From assembly GCF_056712565.1 (NCBI RefSeq), contig NZ_JBWXXM010000005.1: 8,328 bases of DNA. The stretch is one strand, 5' to 3'. This DNA is from a plasmid. This document shows, one piece after another, positions 487-8,328 of this stretch; within the stretch, counting starts at the first letter, position 1; the number at the start of each line of letters is the position of its first letter. Under the pieces are notes generated by a model. It did no database searches. It was given only the letters and a program-made list of their open reading frames with translations, and was not told the origin of the DNA. The position numbers and the translations under genes are program-made.

Positions 487-1556
487 CTGCTCTGCCTCTT
501 AACCTCAGCGGCCTTACCATCCCTGAAACTAACAGCATTCTTAAGTTCATTTTCAACTGCGGAGTACTCAGCCTGCTTAGCTTCAAGCTGACGCTGTAGT
601 TTTTTCTGAACGTCACGCCATCCCGGAAATCCGGTGACCTTCACGTCAACACTCTTCTGAGCGTTTTCAAGCTCTCCTGCAACTCTGGAAACAGTAGCTT
701 GCTTACTCTGTACATCACTTTCAGCCTTCGCCAGTTCAGCTTTCGCCTCAGCTAAACGCTTCTCTGCTTCCGCCACCGCCTGTTTCTCTTCATTAAGAGT
801 TTCATGTTCAGCGACCTCTGCATTTTCACGAGCCTTTTCTTCAGCTTCCTTCTGTTTATTCACATCACCAATTTTACTTTGCAATGTATTTTTATAAGAA
901 TTAAGTTTGCTAATATCTGCATCAAGCTGATTTGATTTTTTTTGCAACTCATCAACATCCCTCTCAAGATCAGTGATACCATGATAAGAATGATGCTTGA
1001 ATACTTTTTTCATCTCCTCGATTTTCTTCTGTTTTTCACTAATCTGTGTAGCAATTTTATTCTTCTGCTTTTGTTTTTCATTAATTACATTACCCACCAC
1101 CTTCGAACTCTTATCCATATCACTGACCTGAGCATTCGTTGGTGCAGTATTAACTGAAGCAGTGTTATTGTTGTTATTTCCTGAGCTTTCTGCAAAAAGT
1201 GATGGCATATCACTAATTAAAGAATTAAGAACTCTGGAGACCCCTCCAAATGGATTATCAACCAGAGTTGAATTATCTTCTGTCATAACAATACCATTCA
1301 TCACCGGAAGGCCATCATTATTAATGACAACATCACCCCACGGAGTCAGATATGACTCACCGGTTTTCATCACAGTTGATGTAGAACCAGATGAATTTGA
1401 ATTTCCCTGACCACCATTATTACCATGCCCAGAGCCACCACCCCAGTGAACCCCACTATTACTATTATTATTTCCACCTTGCTGATTCAGATTCGCCCCT
1501 GTTCCCCCCATAGACTCACCAGCAGTTGGTCCATATCCACTTAGTTCTTTAGCCAT
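480..1556 (-). CDS. cka: Colicin, N-terminal translocation and central coiled-coil/receptor-binding part (358 codons), ending at a premature stop caused by a frameshift
   Basis: ORF track 480..1556 (-). Gly/Asn/Ser-rich N-terminus followed by [36 protein letters not shown]...[13 protein letters not shown], which closely resembles my recollection of the colicin A Tol-dependent translocation domain ([38 protein letters not shown]...RVLNSLV). A long K/E/A-rich coiled-coil follows. SD-like AGAGGA lies 7 nt upstream of the ATG (minus strand, + coords 1563..1568). Assignment to colicin K specifically is circumstantial: total length would be about 548 codons if the frameshift were repaired, and the immunity protein is 96 aa. 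Confidence 0.92.
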
Positions 1557-1600
1557 AAATTCCTCTTTGATAATTAAAACAATAAATTAAAAACAATATA

Positions 1601-1631
1601 CTGTACATATAACCACTGGTTTTATGTACAG
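1601..1631 (-). promoter_or_regulatory. Tandem overlapping LexA boxes (SOS operator) of the colicin promoter
   Basis: Minus-strand sequence CTGTACATAAAACCAGTGGTTATATGTACAG contains two overlapping CTGT-N8-(A/C)CAG motifs, the double SOS box typical of colicin promoters. It lies about 45 bp upstream of the colicin ATG. A candidate -35 TTGACA is at 1659..1664 (minus strand). Confidence 0.85.
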
Positions 1632-1796
1632 TAAAAACCTACTACTCAGCATTGTCCATGTCAAGAGCATGGATTTTCATTTTTGCAATAAGGATCACAC
1701 TATGGGGAGGCAGGCATTGAGAACGTCGAAACAGAACACCGGAGCAAATCAGGATGAGATATAAAACTGTTGGATCATGAAAAAACGGAGAACGAT

Positions 1797-2087
1797 GTGA
1801 GCAAATCACCCCGCCATAAACTGAACAAAACAGACAAACGACTTCTCGACACCCTTGTTGCTGCCGGATATGAGCATGACAAAGCCCGTGACCTCATCCA
1901 GAAACAGGTTTACACGCTGACACTGGCTGATCAGCGTCATGTGGTCAGTGAAATCAGTAATGGTGTGAATCCCACCCAGGCTTACTCGGCGGTATACCAG
2001 GCAAGACGCATTCGCCTCGCCCGTAAATATCTGAACGGTAAAAAGGTTATGGAAGAAACCGGGGAAAATACGCCCCCATCAGCGTAA
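1797..2087 (+). CDS. Hypothetical small basic protein (96 aa from GTG 1797; 105 aa if TTG 1770 is used)
   Basis: ORF track 1770..2087 (+). There is no in-frame ATG near the 5' end; GTG at 1797 is preceded by GGAG (1788..1791) at good spacing. The product is hydrophilic and basic (VSKSPRHKLNKTDKRLLDTLVAAGYEHDKARDLI...). I do not recognise a family and it could be non-coding. Confidence 0.25.
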   Translation: MSKSPRHKLNKTDKRLLDTLVAAGYEHDKARDLIQKQVYTLTLADQRHVVSEISNGVNPTQAYSAVYQARRIRLARKYLNGKKVMEETGENTPPSA

Positions 2088-2357
2088 GGATTTCTTTTGC
2101 CGCTCCAGAGACTCCAGTTTTTTACGCAAATCCTCTCTTTTTTGGGCATCTCTGGTGCCAGCCAGCTCTGCTCTCAACTCATCGATCTGAAGTTGTATCT
2201 TCAGTCTGTTACTGAACATTTTCTGTCTGGCATTAACATCCGCAACAATGCCGTTTTTTGTCTTCTCGGCCTTTTGTTGAAAAACATTGCTGTCCGCATG
2301 ACTGGCAACCGAAGCAGAAAGAACACTAAAAAGCAGGACTGGCACACATTTTTTCAC
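2079..2357 (-). CDS. Small secreted/periplasmic protein with Sec signal peptide (92 aa, GTG start); candidate entry-exclusion or envelope protein
   Basis: ORF track 2079..2357 (-). N-terminus MKKCVPVLLFSVLSASVASHA/DSNVF has the n-, h- and c-regions of a signal peptide with an A-x-A-type cleavage site. The ~71-aa mature part is highly charged and helical. GTG start with AGGA about 9 nt upstream. The opposite-strand ORF 2097..2402 looks like antisense noise. Confidence 0.45.
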   Translation of the reverse strand: MKKCVPVLLFSVLSASVASHADSNVFQQKAEKTKNGIVADVNARQKMFSNRLKIQLQIDELRAELAGTRDAQKREDLRKKLESLERQKKSLR

Positions 2358-2478
2358 GGGATTATTCCTGACTCATTGACCATCAAATCACATTGGGAGT
2401 AAACCGACGTATGATAAGAGATACTCTTCGGAGATATAACTCCCTGAGTATCAAGATTAAAAACGCAAGGAGATGTTT

Positions 2479-2901
2479 ATGAGATCTGCCGCTGCCAGGC
2501 TGCTTCTGATACCTCTGATAACAGCAACAATAGCTCTTACAGGATGCACACCAAAGACCAGCCTGGAACGACATACCCGGCATTATGTTTATGCTTCAGA
2601 TGATGGATTTGATCCTAACTTCTACACCCAGAAAGCAGACACCATACGTATGATGCTCCCGTTCTTTCAGCAGTTCCGGGATATGGGGATGAAAGACAAA
2701 GCAGCCGGAGTATCAGCAGAAACGGCACAGCAACGTGTAAAAGAATTCCACTCAGAAAAATTTTTTCACTCACTCCGGAGCACAACAGCCTTTGCTGGCA
2801 GAAAATACACAAACAGCGATATGCCTTCGCCGAAAAAAATGAAACTAATGGCAGACACCATTTCTGCGGTTTATCTCGATGGATACGAGGGCAGACAGTA
2901 A
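2479..2901 (+). CDS. Lipoprotein (140 aa), possible entry-exclusion-type protein of ColE1-like plasmids
   Basis: ORF track 2473..2901; I prefer ATG 2479 because the SD AAGGA (2467..2471) is 7 nt upstream. N-terminus MRSAAARLLLIPLITATIALTGC is a signal peptide ending in the lipobox L-T-G-C. The position between colicin promoter and mob genes is where ColE1 carries exc genes as I remember it; homology was not verified. Confidence 0.65.
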   Translation: MRSAAARLLLIPLITATIALTGCTPKTSLERHTRHYVYASDDGFDPNFYTQKADTIRMMLPFFQQFRDMGMKDKAAGVSAETAQQRVKEFHSEKFFHSLRSTTAFAGRKYTNSDMPSPKKMKLMADTISAVYLDGYEGRQ

Positions 2902-3274
2902 GGGATTTACCATAATCCCTTAATTGTACGCACCGCTGAAATGCGTTCAGCGCGATCACGGCTGCTGACAGGTAAAAATGGCAACAAACCACCCGAAAAG
3001 CTGCCGCGATCGCACCTGATAAATTTTAACCGTATGCATAGCTATTCAGCCATGTGAATAACGCTGGTTTTGCCTGCGTAAACCTCATGACACTGTTTTT
3101 TTTCCATCTTTTCAGTTGATGACATACGCAGACATCGCGGGATGAGGCTGAGGAATGAGCGCGATCTGGCAAAGAGGCAAAACACAGCAACAAAAACGAC
3201 ACGCCAGAATCGCGCCCGGATGCGTTTTTAACGCGTTCCGGTACCATCTGGCAACCTCCCGGAACAACTCACCG

Positions 3275-4873
3275 TCACATCCCTATTGACGGGCCACGCC
3301 ATACCCGTGCTTCCCGTTCCTGCTCTTCATGCCAGGACCGCGCACGCTCCCGTTCCAGGCGTGCCTGCCTTTCCTGTTCATCCCTTATCTGCTGTTCGTG
3401 ATAAATAACCGACTCAAGTGGTCCACCTGCCCGGCTAATCTCTGCACCTGCTGACTCAAGTCGTCGCACTGTTCCCTCAGTTGCCCGTTCTCCTGTCGTG
3501 TCAGCTCGAACATATGCTGCAAATCCGTGAAGGCGCTCTCCCAGTCTTTCAGCCGCTGCGTATAGTCCTGCTGCAATTGCTCTAAGGCGTTCAGTAAGTG
3601 CATTTCCAGCTCTGTCATACTCACTTACTCCCTGACCAGTCTTACTGCGTTCTTCTTCTCCACCGTCCAGTTGTTTTCCCCCTTCACCCCGGACGGCAAC
3701 ACCAGAAATTTCCCGTTCCTGCCCTCGTGATACGTCACACCCCATGTTTTTTCCCGGAGTTTCGCCAGCGTCTCTTCCTGGTCCCTGATAGCCAGGATGT
3801 TCGCCGCAATCCGGCTTTCCTGCCACTGAATCAGCCCCCATGACGCCAGAAAAATCCCGCCCGTGACGCAAAGCGCCGTCAGCGACGGGTACAGTATCCG
3901 CCCTTTGACCAGCTTCCAGAGCAGCTCTTCCTGCCGCCGGGCCAGTTCGTTCTCTGTGGCGCTGAACTGCGCGTTCACGGCACTGTTCAGCGTCTCCAGT
4001 TGTTCTTTCACCGCTGCTGTGTGTGCGCTGATAGCGTCTCTGATTTTCTGCCCGTTTAAGTTCAGTTCCCTGTCTACAGACGCTTCGAGCTTCCTGAACT
4101 CGCTGTTCAGCATGTTCTCTGTAGAGACGGCACGCTCTTTCAGTTTCTTCTCGAAGTCTGTCCCCATTTGTAAAAGATTGCTCATACAGCGCCCCTTTCA
4201 GCCTGAGATTACGCCCACCCTCCGGGTCGGCGATACTGATACTGCTCCTGGTTGTCCTCACAACCTCAAAACCTGCCGCTGTAAGCGCCTCAGTGACATC
4301 CTGACGCGTTTTTAGCGCTCCGGCATGGTAAAGAGCCTCCAGTCCCCTCGTAATCGCTTCTGCGGCCTCCTGTTTCGCTTTCGGCAGATTATTCGGGGTG
4401 ACAAGTGTCCGCCTGTTCTCCGGTGCGTTCGGGTCGTGCAGCCCGTAATGGTGATTCACCAGTGTCTGCCAGGCATTGATTCGCGGACGGTCCGCTCGGT
4501 CGTAATAGGGCTGGAGCCGTTTTCCGCTCGCCAGCTCCATATTCGGGATGACAAAATTCAGCTCAAGACGCCCCTTGTCCTGGTGCTCCACCCACAGGAT
4601 GCTGTACTGATTTTTTTCAAGACCGGGCATCAGTACCCGCTCAAAGCTCTCCATCACCCTTTCACGCTCTCCCGGTGGCAGGGTCTGCTCTGCAAAAGAC
4701 AGAACCCCCGAGGTGTATTTTTTCGCAAACGGCGTGGCATCGATGAGTTCCCGCACCTCTTCGGGAGCACCCCGCAGAACTCTCGCCCCTTCCCGGTTAC
4801 GCTCCCGGCCCAGCAGGTAATCAACCGGACCACTGCCACCGCCTTTTCCCCTGGCATGAAACTTAACTATCAT
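3275..4873 (-). CDS. mbeA: Mobilization relaxase MbeA (ColE1-type, MOB HEN family)
   Basis: ORF track 3275..4900 (-). From the internal Met it reads MIVKFHARGKGGGSGPVDYLLGRERNREGA...ILWVEHQDKGRLELNFVIPNMEL...QPYYDRADRPRINAWQ, matching ColE1 MbeA as I recall it. The ATG at 4873..4871 overlaps the mbeC stop in the usual coupled arrangement. The compositionally odd C-terminal half fits mbeB and mbeD being encoded in other frames. Confidence 0.92.
   Translation of the reverse strand: MIVKFHARGKGGGSGPVDYLLGRERNREGARVLRGAPEEVRELIDATPFAKKYTSGVLSFAEQTLPPGERERVMESFERVLMPGLEKNQYSILWVEHQDKGRLELNFVIPNMELASGKRLQPYYDRADRPRINAWQTLVNHHYGLHDPNAPENRRTLVTPNNLPKAKQEAAEAITRGLEALYHAGALKTRQDVTEALTAAGFEVVRTTRSSISIADPEGGRNLRLKGALYEQSFTNGDRLREETERACRLYREHAEQRVQEARSVCRQGTELKRAENQRRYQRTHSSGERTTGDAEQCRERAVQRHRERTGPAAGRAALEAGQRADTVPVADGALRHGRDFSGVMGADSVAGKPDCGEHPGYQGPGRDAGETPGKNMGCDVSRGQEREISGVAVRGEGGKQLDGGEEERSKTGQGVSEYDRAGNALTERLRAIAAGLYAAAERLGERLHGFAAYVRADTTGERATEGTVRRLESAGAEISRAGGPLESVIYHEQQIRDEQERQARLERERARSWHEEQEREARVWRGPSIGM
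3385..3618 (-). CDS. mbeD: Mobilization protein MbeD, nested within the 3' part of mbeA in another frame
   Basis: ORF track 3385..3624 (-), product M(S)MTELEMHLLNALEQLQQDYTQRLKDWESAFTDLQHMFELTRQENGQLREQCDDLSQQVQRLAGQVDHLSRLF. ATG at 3618 with GGGAG upstream; an alternative GTG at 3624 abuts the mbeB stop. Confidence 0.75.
   Translation of the reverse strand: MTELEMHLLNALEQLQQDYTQRLKDWESAFTDLQHMFELTRQENGQLREQCDDLSQQVQRLAGQVDHLSRLFITNSR
3625..4185 (-). CDS. mbeB: Mobilization protein MbeB, nested within mbeA in another frame
   Basis: ORF track 3625..4185 (-), product MSNLLQMGTDFEKKLKERAVSTENMLNSEFRKLEASVDREL... with a hydrophobic segment (LYPSLTALCVTGGIFLASWGLI). SD-like AAAGGGG upstream of the ATG. 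The stop abuts the mbeD start. Confidence 0.8.
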   Translation of the reverse strand: MSNLLQMGTDFEKKLKERAVSTENMLNSEFRKLEASVDRELNLNGQKIRDAISAHTAAVKEQLETLNSAVNAQFSATENELARRQEELLWKLVKGRILYPSLTALCVTGGIFLASWGLIQWQESRIAANILAIRDQEETLAKLREKTWGVTYHEGRNGKFLVLPSGVKGENNWTVEKKNAVRLVRE

Positions 4874-5210
4874 CCCGTTCTCCCTGTTTACGGACCTCAT
4901 CCCTCAGCTCACTCAGTTCACGTCCGATGGCCATCAGTGCAGCCACCACATGAACCCGGTCATGCCCCGACCACTGTCCGCTGTTTATCTTCCGGGCTAT
5001 CTGATTCAGGTTATTGCCGACCGAAGCGAACTGGCGCAACAGCGGCGGTGCCAGTGTCGGAAGACCTGACGTTTTCGATGGCGGTGCCCCCAGGCAGACC
5101 TTACGCATCCATGACGCAAGTTGTTTTCCCTCACAACGTGCCAGCAGCCGCGCATGTTCCTCATCCGTGACCCGTATCGTGAGCATCCTTTCGCGTTTCA
5201 CCGGTATCAT
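4863..5210 (-). CDS. mbeC: Mobilization accessory protein MbeC (relaxosome component)
   Basis: ORF track 4863..5363 (-). The conserved part MLTIRVTDEEHARLLARCEGKQLASWMRKVCLG...LAPPLLRQFASVGNNLNQIARKINSG...HVVAALMAIGRELSELR matches ColE1 MbeC/MobC as I recall it. Start chosen at ATG 5210 (GGAGG 7 nt upstream); ATG 5186 is an alternative. The first 52 codons of the track ORF are treated as spurious. Confidence 0.85.
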   Translation of the reverse strand: MIPVKRERMLTIRVTDEEHARLLARCEGKQLASWMRKVCLGAPPSKTSGLPTLAPPLLRQFASVGNNLNQIARKINSGQWSGHDRVHVVAALMAIGRELSELRDEVRKQGERDDS

Positions 5211-5253
5211 TAAAAACCTCCGACAGACTCCCCACACATGGAGAAACAGAACT

Positions 5254-6288: not shown

Positions 6289-6392
6289 ACAGCATTTGGT
6301 ATCTGTGCTCCACTAAAGCCAGTTACCCGGTTAAGCAGTCCCCAACTGACTTAACCTTCGACTAAACCGCCTCCCCAGGCGGTTTTTTCGTT
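6289..6392 (+). ncRNA. RNAI antisense copy-number control RNA
   Basis: Starts at ACAGCATTTGGTATCTG (pMB1 RNAI starts ACAGTATTTGGTATCTG) and ends at the hairpin plus T-run ...ccgcctccccaggcggttttttcgtt. Its promoter has -35 TTGAAG (6254..6259) and -10 TACACT (6276..6281) as in pMB1. Loop sequences differ from pMB1. Confidence 0.8.
6364..6392 (+). terminator. RNAI intrinsic terminator
   Basis: Stem aaaccgcct / aggcggttt with loop cccc, followed by a T-run (ttttttcgtt). Confidence 0.7.
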
Positions 6393-6402
6393 TACAGGCA
6401 GC

Positions 6403-6432
6403 AGATTACGCGCAGAAAAAAAGGATCTCAAG
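6403..6432 (-). promoter_or_regulatory. RNAII promoter (-35 TTGAGA, -10 TAATCT on minus strand)
   Basis: Minus-strand sequence cttcTTGAGAtcctttttttctgcgcgTAATCTgctgcctGTAAAC has a 17-nt spacer and matches the pMB1 RNAII promoter as I recall it. Confidence 0.7.
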
Positions 6433-6454
6433 AAGATCCTTTGATCTTTTCTAC

Positions 6455-6459
6455 TGAAC
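6455..6459. repeat. IS2 target-site duplication (TGAAC), right-end copy
   Basis: TGAAC immediately outside the IS2 end at 6460; an identical TGAAC lies at 7791..7795 outside the other end. IS2 is known to make 5-bp duplications. Confidence 0.85.
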
Positions 6460-6500
6460 TGGATTTGCCCCTATATTTCCAGACACCTGTTATCACTTAA
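6460..6500. repeat. IS2 terminal inverted repeat (IRR)
   Basis: Imperfect inverted repeat partner of 7749..7790; shared core CCAGACA...ATATCACTTA. Confidence 0.8.
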
Positions 6501-7376
6501 CCCATTACTGGCTTGCTGCCGTAGATATTCCCGTGGCGAGCGATAACCCAGTGCACTATGCGGATGCCATTCGTTATAATGCTCGAACGCCTCTGCAAGG
6601 TTCTTTGCTGCCGTTAACCCGTCTGGTTTGGGCATGACACTGATGTAGTCACGCTTTATCGTTTTCACGAAGCTCTCTGCTATGCCGTTACTCTCCGGAC
6701 TCCGCACCGCCGTGCTCTTCGGTTCAAGCCCCAACATCCGGGCAAACTGCCGTGTTTCATTAGCCCGGTAGCATGAACCATTATCCGTCAGCCACTCTAC
6801 TGGAGACGCCGGAAGCTCGTTGCCGAAGCGGCGTTCCACCGCTCCCAGCATGACGTCCTGTACTGTTTCACTGTTGAAGCCGCCCGTAGTGACCGCCCAG
6901 TGCAGTGCCTCACGGTCACAGCAGTCCAGCGCGAACGTGACTCGCAGTTTTTCTCCGTTATCACAGCGGAACTCGAACCCGTCAGAGCACCATCGCTGAT
7001 TACTTTCTTTCACAGCCACTCTGCCTGTATGTGCCCGTTTCGATGGCGGTACAGCAGGTTTTCGCTCAAGCAACAGCGCATTCTGGCGCATGATCCGGTA
7101 AACACGTTTGGCATTGATCGCAGGCATACCATCAAGTTCTGCCTGTCTGCGAAGCAGCGCCCATACCCGACGATAACCATACGTGGGCAGCTCTCCGATA
7201 ACATGGTGTATACGGAGAAGCACATCCGTATCATCAGTGTGACGACTGCGGCGGCCATCCATCCAGTCATCGGTTCGTCTGAGAATGACGTGCAACTGCG
7301 CACGCGACACCCGGAGACAACGGCTGACTAAGCTTACTCCCCATCCCCGGGCAATAAGGGCGCGTGCGCTATCCAC
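6471..7376 (-). CDS. insD: IS2 transposase OrfB (InsD), normally expressed as an OrfAB fusion by -1 frameshifting
   Basis: ORF track 6471..7376 (-) 301 aa, (M/V)[33 protein letters not shown]...[12 protein letters not shown]... with a DDE-type integrase core (...[37 protein letters not shown]...). The first codon is GTG and overlaps the end of insC. Confidence 0.95.
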
Positions 7377-7699
7377 TTTTTTGCCCGTCCATATTCAACG
7401 GCTTCTTTGAGGAGTTCATTTTCCATCGTTTTCTTGCCGAGCAGGCGCTGGAGTTCTTTAATCTGCTTCATGGCGGCAGCAAGTTCAGAGGCAGGAACAA
7501 CCTGTTCTCCGGCGGCGACAGCAGTAAGACTTCCTTCCTGGTATTGCTTACGCCAGAGAAATAACTGGCTGGCTGCTACACCATGTTGCCGGGCAACGAG
7601 GGAGACCGTCATCCCTGGTTCAAAGCTCTGCTGAACAATTGCGATCTTTTCCTGTGTGGTACGCCGTCTGCGTTTCTCCGGTCCTAAGACATCAATCAT
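7334..7699 (-). CDS. insC: IS2 OrfA (InsC), helix-turn-helix regulator / N-terminal part of the transposase
   Basis: From ATG at 7699: [58 protein letters not shown]...[26 protein letters not shown]. The 15 extra N-terminal codons in the track ORF 7334..7744 are rejected. Confidence 0.93.
7377..7383 (-). other. IS2 programmed -1 ribosomal frameshift heptamer (A AAA AAG) at the insC/insD overlap
   Basis: Minus-strand sequence ggcA AAA AAG tgg is in the OrfA zero frame. A -1 slip reads AAA AAA GTG GAT AGC = KKVDS..., continuing into InsD. This is a known IS3-family mechanism. Confidence 0.7.
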
Positions 7700-7748
7700 C
7701 TGCTCTCCAATGACTAGTCTAAAAACTAGTATTAAGACTATCACTTAA

Positions 7749-7790
7749 ATAAGTGATATTGGTTGTCTGGAGATTCAGGGGGCCAGTCTA
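7749..7790. repeat. IS2 terminal inverted repeat (IRL)
   Basis: Reverse complement from 7790 reads TAGACTGGCCCCCTGAATCTCCAGACAACCAATATCACTTA... The lysis-gene reading frame terminates inside this repeat at TGA 7775..7777. Confidence 0.8.
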
Positions 7791-7918
7791 TGAACCGCGA
7801 TCCCCGTCAGTTCAGAAGACGAAGATGGTGCAACGGTTCCTCCTTGTACATCACGAATATAGTTTGCTTGACATCCTGACAAGAATAATATTGTAATTAG
7901 AAAAATTATTATTTTCAT
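7775..7918 (-). CDS. ckl: Colicin lysis (bacteriocin release) lipoprotein, with its 3' end altered by the IS2 insertion (47 codons; ends ...GIAV-HRLAP)
   Basis: Not in the ORF track (short). Reverse complement of 7793..7918 translates [42 protein letters not shown], with signal peptide, lipobox L-S-G-C and the [14 protein letters not shown] motif typical of colicin lysis proteins. Reading continues across the TSD into the IS2 IRL (H R L A P, stop TGA at 7775..7777). The displaced native end (Q codon and TAG) lies at 6451..6456 on the other side of IS2. Confidence 0.8.
7791..7795. repeat. IS2 target-site duplication (TGAAC), left-end copy
   Basis: TGAAC directly abutting the IS2 end at 7790; identical to 6455..6459. 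Confidence 0.85.
7868..7897 (+). promoter_or_regulatory. Candidate immunity-gene promoter located inside the lysis-gene coding region
   Basis: TTGACA at 7868..7873, an 18-nt spacer, TGTAAT at 7892..7897, about 50 bp upstream of the immunity ATG at 7948. Confidence 0.4.
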
Positions 7919-7947: not shown

Positions 7948-8238
7948 ATGCATTTAAAATACTACCTACATAATTTACCTGAATCACTTATACCATGGAT
8001 TCTTATTTTAATATTTAACGACAATGATAACACTCCTTTGTTATTTATATTTATATCATCAATACATGTATTGCTATATCCATACTCTAAATTAACCATA
8101 TCTAGATATATCAAAGAAAATACAAAGTTAAAAAAAGAACCCTGGTACTTATGCAAGTTATCTGCATTGTTTTATTTATTAATGGCAATCCCAGTAGGAT
8201 TGCCAAGTTTCATATATTACACTCTAAAGAGAAATTAA
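7948..8238 (+). CDS. cki: Pore-forming colicin immunity protein (96 aa, integral inner-membrane protein)
   Basis: ORF track 7948..8238 (+). Very AT-rich and hydrophobic (…[33 protein letters not shown]…[26 protein letters not shown]), consistent with several membrane spans. It is convergent with the colicin gene and sits between colicin and lysis genes on the opposite strand, the canonical arrangement for pore-former immunity genes. Its stop (8236..8238) overlaps the colicin stop (8235..8237). Confidence 0.8.
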
Positions 8239-8328
8239 ATCCCTAACAACTCATTAAGTTTGCTCAACTCATCATCCCCTATGTAAGAAGAAACAATACC
8301 TGTGACAATTGCAATCCCCCAGAAACCA
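8235..8328 (-). CDS. cka: C-terminal tail of the colicin gene (last 29 codons plus stop), continuing from the window start across the circular junction
   Basis: Reverse complement of 8235..8327 translates [30 protein letters not shown]-stop, the end of the hydrophobic hairpin and C-terminus of a pore-forming colicin. The stop TAA is the reverse complement of 8235..8237. Window 8325..8328 (acca) equals window 1..4 (acca), and joining 8324 to 1 gives a continuous ...[15 protein letters not shown]... reading frame. Confidence 0.75.

Follow-up and report, generated by a model that had tools for sequence, protein, structure and literature searches.

The colicin K plasmid pColK-K235 (NC_006881.1, 8318 bp) has a ColE1-like backbone, a cka-cki-ckl operon and mob genes, and its lysis gene ckl is intact (a 132-nt CDS encoding 43 amino acids). 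It also carries one copy of the insertion sequence IS2, at L001 868-2198. Another colicin K plasmid, pSCU-103-4 (CP054461.1, about 6988 bp), is free of IS2 and shows the empty site ...CTACTGAACCGCGATCC...; its ckl ends in GIAVQ-TAG and is followed after 8 nt by a terminator hairpin, and its cka is intact. A further described system is the bacteriocin release protein (BRP) of CloDF13, whose mature sequence is identical to that of native Ckl, whereas its signal peptide is different and longer (21 residues versus 15 in Ckl). Because the two mature proteins are the same, mutational data obtained on BRP carry over directly to Ckl. Luirink and colleagues reportedly described in 1989 a CloDF13 BRP derivative of 20 mature residues that is still lipid-modified and processed and releases cloacin, the last 8 residues of the mature protein being, by the same report, dispensable.

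The window, meaning the whole stretch of 8,328 nucleotides that was analysed, is an entire circular ColE1-like colicin K plasmid. The letters ACCA at 1-4 and 8325-8328 overlap, leaving 8324 unique bases, and collinearity with circular plasmids continues through the start/end point. It is 99.9% identical to plasmids annotated with cka, cki, Rop, MobC, MbeB, MbeD and Exc2, and the Pfam families Colicin, CKI, Rop and MobC were matched on L003 (ABGHSQ010000092.1 of GCA_023519835.1, 8325 bp), a public contig that differs from the window by one base overall, an extra T at window position 498. The plasmid has the defining gene content of colicin K plasmids, being ColE1-like and MOBP mobilisable with cka, cki, rop and mob genes. 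When the whole window was searched against PLSDB, full coverage was reached only by pColK-K235, with 99.4-99.9% identity outside IS2, while 26 IS2-free relatives, mostly of 6988 bp, were covered at 84% or below. The possibility that the window is pColK-K235 itself was ruled out by three differences: IS2 of the latter lies elsewhere (between the positions corresponding to 1879 and 1884 of the window, about 325 bp upstream of cka), it differs from the window IS2 at 31 of 1331 positions (97.7% identity), and it leaves ckl intact. Mobile elements of other kinds were seen in two further ColK relatives, both with an intact ckl 3' end: ISEcp1 with blaCTX-M-14 in CP088446.1 (11126 bp) and the IS66-family ISCro1 in NZ_CP062872.1 (9695 bp). 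The former is notable as a small colicin K plasmid with an extended-spectrum beta-lactamase gene.

Sequence inspection showed that the 1331 bp at 6460-7790 are a complete IS2 with a copy of TGAAC on each side (6455-6459 and 7791-7795), that is, with the 5-bp direct target duplication of this element. IS2 lies on the minus strand, its left inverted repeat ending at 7790 and its right one at 6460, so its transposase genes are co-directional with ckl. The terminal inverted repeats (about 41 bp in IS2) are imperfect, as gapped alignment of the two ends matches about 30 of 45 positions, including the blocks CCAGACA and TATCACTT. Both transposase genes are present on the minus strand. The first, orfA (7334-7699, ATG at 7699), encodes the 121-aa repressor TnpA/InsA and covers profile positions 1-121 of the 121 of NCBIfam NF006928 with 275.8 bits, against a curated cut-off of 229. 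The second, orfB (6471-7376), encodes the 301-aa catalytic part of the transposase and covers positions 1-301 of the 301 of NF006918 (IS2 transposase TnpB) with 713 bits, against a cut-off of 597. An A6G slippery motif for -1 frameshifting occurs at 7376-7382, and orfA and orfB overlap in the -1 frame, as they do in IS2. Every testable defining feature of IS2 is therefore found at 6460-7790. Chromosomal IS2 copies, that of NZ_CP030111.1 among them, match the element at 100% identity along all 1331 bp, and an IS2 copy (at least 80% of the 1331 bp covered) is present in 4059 of 5426 complete Escherichia coli genomes.

Within ckl, the joint with IS2 falls between bases 2 and 3 of codon 43 (native CAG, Gln). 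The TGAAC copy at the left end of IS2 (7791-7795) reads GTTCA on the coding strand and supplies Val42 and bases 1 and 2 of codon 43; the copy at the right end (6455-6459), together with 6451-6454, reads GTTCAGTAG on the minus strand and is the displaced native Val-Gln-stop. In silico removal of IS2 and of one TGAAC restores ...GCG GTT CAG TAG, that is, ...GIAVQ* and a protein of 43 aa. The initial annotation had placed IS2, with its TGAAC duplication, in the last sense codon of the lysis gene and had proposed a native product of 43 aa ending in Gln-TAG; sequence and reconstruction agree with the former, and the excision with the latter. The empty site that it expected in related plasmids was found in the 26 PLSDB relatives. 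The window without IS2 and one TGAAC has 6992 bases, still counting the 4 at its end that stem from the circular overlap. It differs from CP054461.1 at three places, none of them near the joint: one nucleotide is deleted at 498, one is inserted at 2922 and one is substituted at 5125. Agreement of this order lies far beyond chance. We regard this structural description of ckl::IS2 as close to certain.

The chimeric lysis gene occupies 7775-7918 on the minus strand and consists of 47 codons and a TGA stop. Up to codon 42 it is native; codon 43 reads CAT (His) where the native gene has CAG (Gln), and the left inverted repeat of IS2 supplies codons 44-47 (RLAP) as well as the stop. The product has 47 aa and ends in ...GIAV-HRLAP, compared with the native 43 aa ending in ...GIAVQ. 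Comparison with native Ckl confirmed that residues 1-42, comprising the signal peptide, the lipobox and the core, are untouched. The new end had been described as a novel tail of five residues; more exactly, it is one substitution (Q43H) followed by four additions (RLAP). The chimeric protein matches Pfam PF02402 (Lysis_col) with E=3.4e-23, its residues 4-42 aligning to model positions 10-48 of 49; the model stops at the position of Gln43, and the tail extends beyond the conserved core. The lipobox LFLSG-C16 (L-S-G-C) is present, with a weak match to LPAM_1 over residues 2-17, and a profile search against NCBIfam gave no matching model for the chimeric protein.

An unusual property of the chimeric protein is its length after processing. 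The mature lipoprotein has 32 residues versus 28 in native Ckl, and it keeps 27 of the 28 native ones. Among 148 relatives collected by protein similarity, 134 with a recognisable lipobox were used for mature lengths; exactly 28 residues were found in 107 of these, and longer forms are rare. The allele departs in this respect from the 28 residues typical of its close subfamily, but this is a consequence of the mutation and gives no ground to exclude ckl::IS2 from the Lysis_col family. The conserved mature length and the rarity of extensions could mean that the C-terminal end of the lysis protein is constrained. The final residue itself varies among relatives (Gln, Arg, Lys, or His as in ...GIEDH or ...GIADH), and in L005 (4297-4425) codon 43 is changed from CAG to TAG (GTT TAG TAG), giving a natural variant of 42 aa without Gln43 that occurs on plasmids with a 490-aa colicin. 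Two relatives (P0041 and P0114) are read-through variants that continue 15 aa past the stop codon.

Judging from these comparisons, we consider it somewhat probable that the HRLAP-tailed Ckl still works, as the initial annotation had suggested it may: its residues 1-42 are unchanged, its tail falls outside the conserved core, its native mature part matches CloDF13 BRP, of which a derivative with 20 mature residues reportedly still releases cloacin, and variants that lack Gln43 or end in His exist in nature.

Shorter 'partial' Ckl proteins (P0020 to P0029) were considered as candidate truncation alleles; the two that were examined, P0025 and P0029, are mostly contig-end artefacts. Among the contigs of these two, a real change was present in L005 only, and P0030 (L004) is a real allele caused by IS1. 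In short-read assemblies of ColK-type plasmids, contigs frequently stop right at the 3' end of ckl (L006, L007, L008, L009 and L010), the point at which sequence common to other ColE1-type origins starts, and these breaks generate many artefactual 'partial' lysis proteins in databases.

The remainder of the operon surrounds the insertion as follows. The immunity gene cki (7948-8238, plus strand, 96 aa) is oriented against cka and ckl and is untouched by IS2; it is annotated as such in the 99.9% identical plasmids, and Pfam CKI (PF17500) was matched in L003. The promoter region of cka (1598-1664, minus strand) has stayed intact; it contains the -35 box TTGACA and a pair of LexA (SOS) boxes that overlap each other, elements whose promoter and SOS function is established for colicin operons. 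With the order cka, cki (opposite strand) and ckl, and with LexA boxes upstream of cka, ckl is the last gene of an SOS operon. By analogy, we infer that the promoter at 1598-1664 is the source of transcripts reading through ckl into IS2.

Downstream of ckl, a terminator scan located the native terminator-like hairpin with its T-run at 6416-6442 (minus strand). This hairpin starts 8 nt past the ckl TAG in IS2-free plasmids and is displaced here to 1336 bp downstream of ckl. Analogy with ColE1-type origins leads us to take TTGAGA at 6426-6431 and TAATCT at 6403-6408 to be the -35 and -10 boxes of the promoter of the replication primer RNA II. The descending arm of the hairpin overlaps this presumed -35 box, so that some sequence belongs both to the colicin operon, at its end, and to the replication primer, at its start. 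The terminator of RNA I was found on the plus strand at 6364-6385 by the same scan. IS2 is now 28 bp away from the presumed RNA II -35 box, on its upstream side, and below position 6459 the window is identical to IS2-free plasmids, the hairpin and the promoter motifs being retained. A promoter scan listed no outward hybrid promoter from the right end of IS2 into the RNA II region.

What had first been proposed for the fate of the operon transcripts finds no support in the sequence. The initial annotation stated that the transcript now ends inside IS2, but the terminator scan predicted no intrinsic terminator on the ckl strand within the element, the next one being the native hairpin (6442..6420). 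Operon transcripts may read through to this old terminator, or they may undergo Rho-dependent termination. The hairpin, which formerly adjoined ckl and is now displaced from it, may stabilise the 3' end of the mRNA. A 47-aa open reading frame on the plus strand (window positions 7753-7896) leaves the left end of IS2 antisense to ckl and is probably meaningless. In L013, the IS2-derived peptide that starts this frame is fused to a lysis gene and annotated as the N-terminus of a lysis protein, an example of how IS2 ends create spurious chimeric annotations.

A second change affects the colicin gene. The gene cka runs on the minus strand from 1 to 1556 and continues at 8324-8235 across the circular junction, with a -1 frameshift at about 498: one T that L003 and every IS2-free relative possess is missing there, and AAA has become AA on the coding strand. 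The frameshift leads to a stop at 480 and to a product of 358 aa instead of 548, cut before the pore-forming domain, whereas cka is intact in L003 and encodes the full 548-aa colicin K. An exact-protein look-up returned no record of the truncated colicin of 358 aa, possibly because frameshifted genes are annotated as pseudogenes. Either cka has truly been inactivated by mutation or the missing base is an error of assembly; in the former case, the copy of the plasmid in the window yields no active colicin, and whether it can release any ceases to matter.

The chimeric lysis protein is already public, under the generic name 'colicin release lysis protein'. An exact-protein look-up in NCBI nr traced the 47-aa protein to five contigs, which carry the names E. 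coli and Salmonella enterica (accessions EIB3029249.1, EJF8488591.1, ELR6627973.1 and HHU9404005.1). One of the five, L003, is 100% identical to the window over IS2 and both junctions, which is an independent sighting of the IS2/ckl junction proposed in the initial annotation. Recovery of the allele was solely through this look-up: the ckl/IS2 junction had no place covering at least 80% of the query in PLSDB or in the 5426 complete E. coli genomes, and the exact 37-mer of the junction had 0 matches in a collection of species-representative genomes. Native Ckl of 43 aa, on the other hand, is found on at least 993 contigs, which makes ckl::IS2 a rare derivative. A single outbreak or clone could be the source of all five contigs, in which case any argument from the persistence of the allele would lose weight. 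Full-text literature searches found no paper describing IS2 in ckl.

Taken as a whole, these data make it very likely that ckl::IS2 is a natural allele of a ColE1-like mobilisable colicin K plasmid (with a backbone of about 6988 bp) that arose by transposition of IS2. An IS2 of chromosomal type transposed into the 3' end of ckl, duplicating GTTCA and splitting codon 43, and Ckl is altered solely at its extreme C-terminus. A sense-oriented IS2 of 1.3 kb now separates ckl from the terminator hairpin and the RNA II promoter, both still intact. The modified Ckl would still be lipid-modified and largely functional, and the allele near-neutral or mildly attenuating. Its survival might be explained by the last codon of ckl being among the few spots that tolerate 1.3 kb of additional DNA without harm to replication, immunity or the cores of genes; the slot for such an insertion would be very narrow, because downstream of it lie the terminator and the replication promoter, and upstream of it Ckl is truncated.

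Other mobile elements have entered colicin lysis genes, members of the same small family on plasmids of the same type, and they bear on whether the allele is as innocuous as this. In L004 (GCA_013481005.1; P0030), an IS1 of 768 bp at 3616-4383 with a 9-bp duplication interrupts codon 36 and yields ...SSSG*. An IS3-family element lies at about codon 32 of the lysis gene in L015 (GCA_037167665.1; 7549-7658 and 1-109), a Tn3-family transposon at about codon 32-33 in L016 (GCA_015528845.1; about 1442-5227), and in L013 (GCA_044698735.1; 1-316) the left end of IS2 abuts the signal-peptide codons of a ColE1-type lysis gene. About nine more relatives with foreign N-termini resemble further cases (P0108, P0115, P0117, P0118, P0120, P0125, P0130, P0135 and P0140). 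The survey was made by protein similarity and is biased towards insertions at the 3' end. On its evidence, mobile elements may repeatedly land in lysis genes or be retained there; this recurrence agrees with the lethality known for the expression of such genes, and it makes ckl::IS2 an ordinary allele.

From the same recurrence of IS1, IS3-family, Tn3-family and IS2 insertions one may also argue that ckl::IS2 attenuates or inactivates lysis and has been kept since it lowers the lethal cost of expressing the lysis gene, either because the extended protein is unstable or mis-sorted or because the loss of the adjacent terminator reduces the stability of ckl mRNA or causes polarity. We hold this 'anti-suicide' role to be possible, but the less probable account. 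The strongly conserved mature length of 28 residues and the frameshift in the window copy of cka would be in keeping with it, as would a synthetic circuit in which lysis-escape cheaters arose with IS1 next to a colicin lysis gene (bioRxiv 10.1101/086900). However, through the insertions in L004, L015, L016 and L013 the protein loses either 8 to 11 native residues at its C-terminus or its signal peptide, whereas that of the window leaves all 42 upstream residues of Ckl intact and costs the last residue only. Natural loss of Gln43 exists, L003 retains a cka for 548 aa and so indicates that the plasmid lineage is not generally decaying, and the bias of similarity searches favours the recovery of precisely such 3'-end insertions.

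The orientation of IS2 raises a different possibility. Since ckl and orfA/orfB are on the same strand, the ckl::IS2 stop codon lying 76 nt upstream of the orfA ATG at 7699, since no intrinsic terminator is predicted on that strand from ckl to orfA or within IS2, and since SOS boxes are present at the operon promoter, LexA-controlled cka-ckl transcripts might enter IS2 in the sense direction and make its transposase, and hence transposition, inducible by DNA damage. We find such a regulatory fusion improbable, as IS elements commonly resist being activated by outside transcription, TnpA of IS2 represses at the left end, and the transposase requires a rare -1 frameshift. The broader proposal that ckl::IS2 is non-neutral, through an IS2 transposase made SOS-inducible by fusion to an operon of very high transcription on a multicopy mobilisable plasmid and/or through lysis tuned down by the extended tail and the displaced terminator, is doubtful to the same degree; if true, either effect could account for the presence of the variant in several isolates of two genera. 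Finally, a misjoining of a chromosomal IS2 into the plasmid contig is conceivable for an element that is multicopy in most E. coli genomes, at a site where short-read contigs often break, but it is hardly credible given the perfect 5-bp target duplication with both junctions inside one contig, the same chimeric protein in five assemblies from two named genera, and the closure of the sequence as a circle with a 4-nt overlap.

As a natural allele produced by transposition, ckl::IS2 taken alone matters little, being one more IS insertion in a well-studied plasmid family, and its wider meaning comes from the systems with which it can be compared. Next to the lysis genes interrupted by other elements, it belongs to a series of recurrent insertions that bear on the evolution of a costly, suicidal form of toxin release. 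Next to pColK-K235, whose IS2 is a diverged copy at another site, it shows that ColK plasmids have gained IS2 at least twice, independently. Next to CloDF13, where the published BRP variants are said to be truncations (by Luirink and colleagues in 1989) or point mutants (by van der Wal and colleagues in 1998), with no C-terminal extensions among them, it stands as a natural mutant, extended at the C-terminus, of a protein whose native mature part has the same sequence as that of the CloDF13 BRP used in biotechnology.
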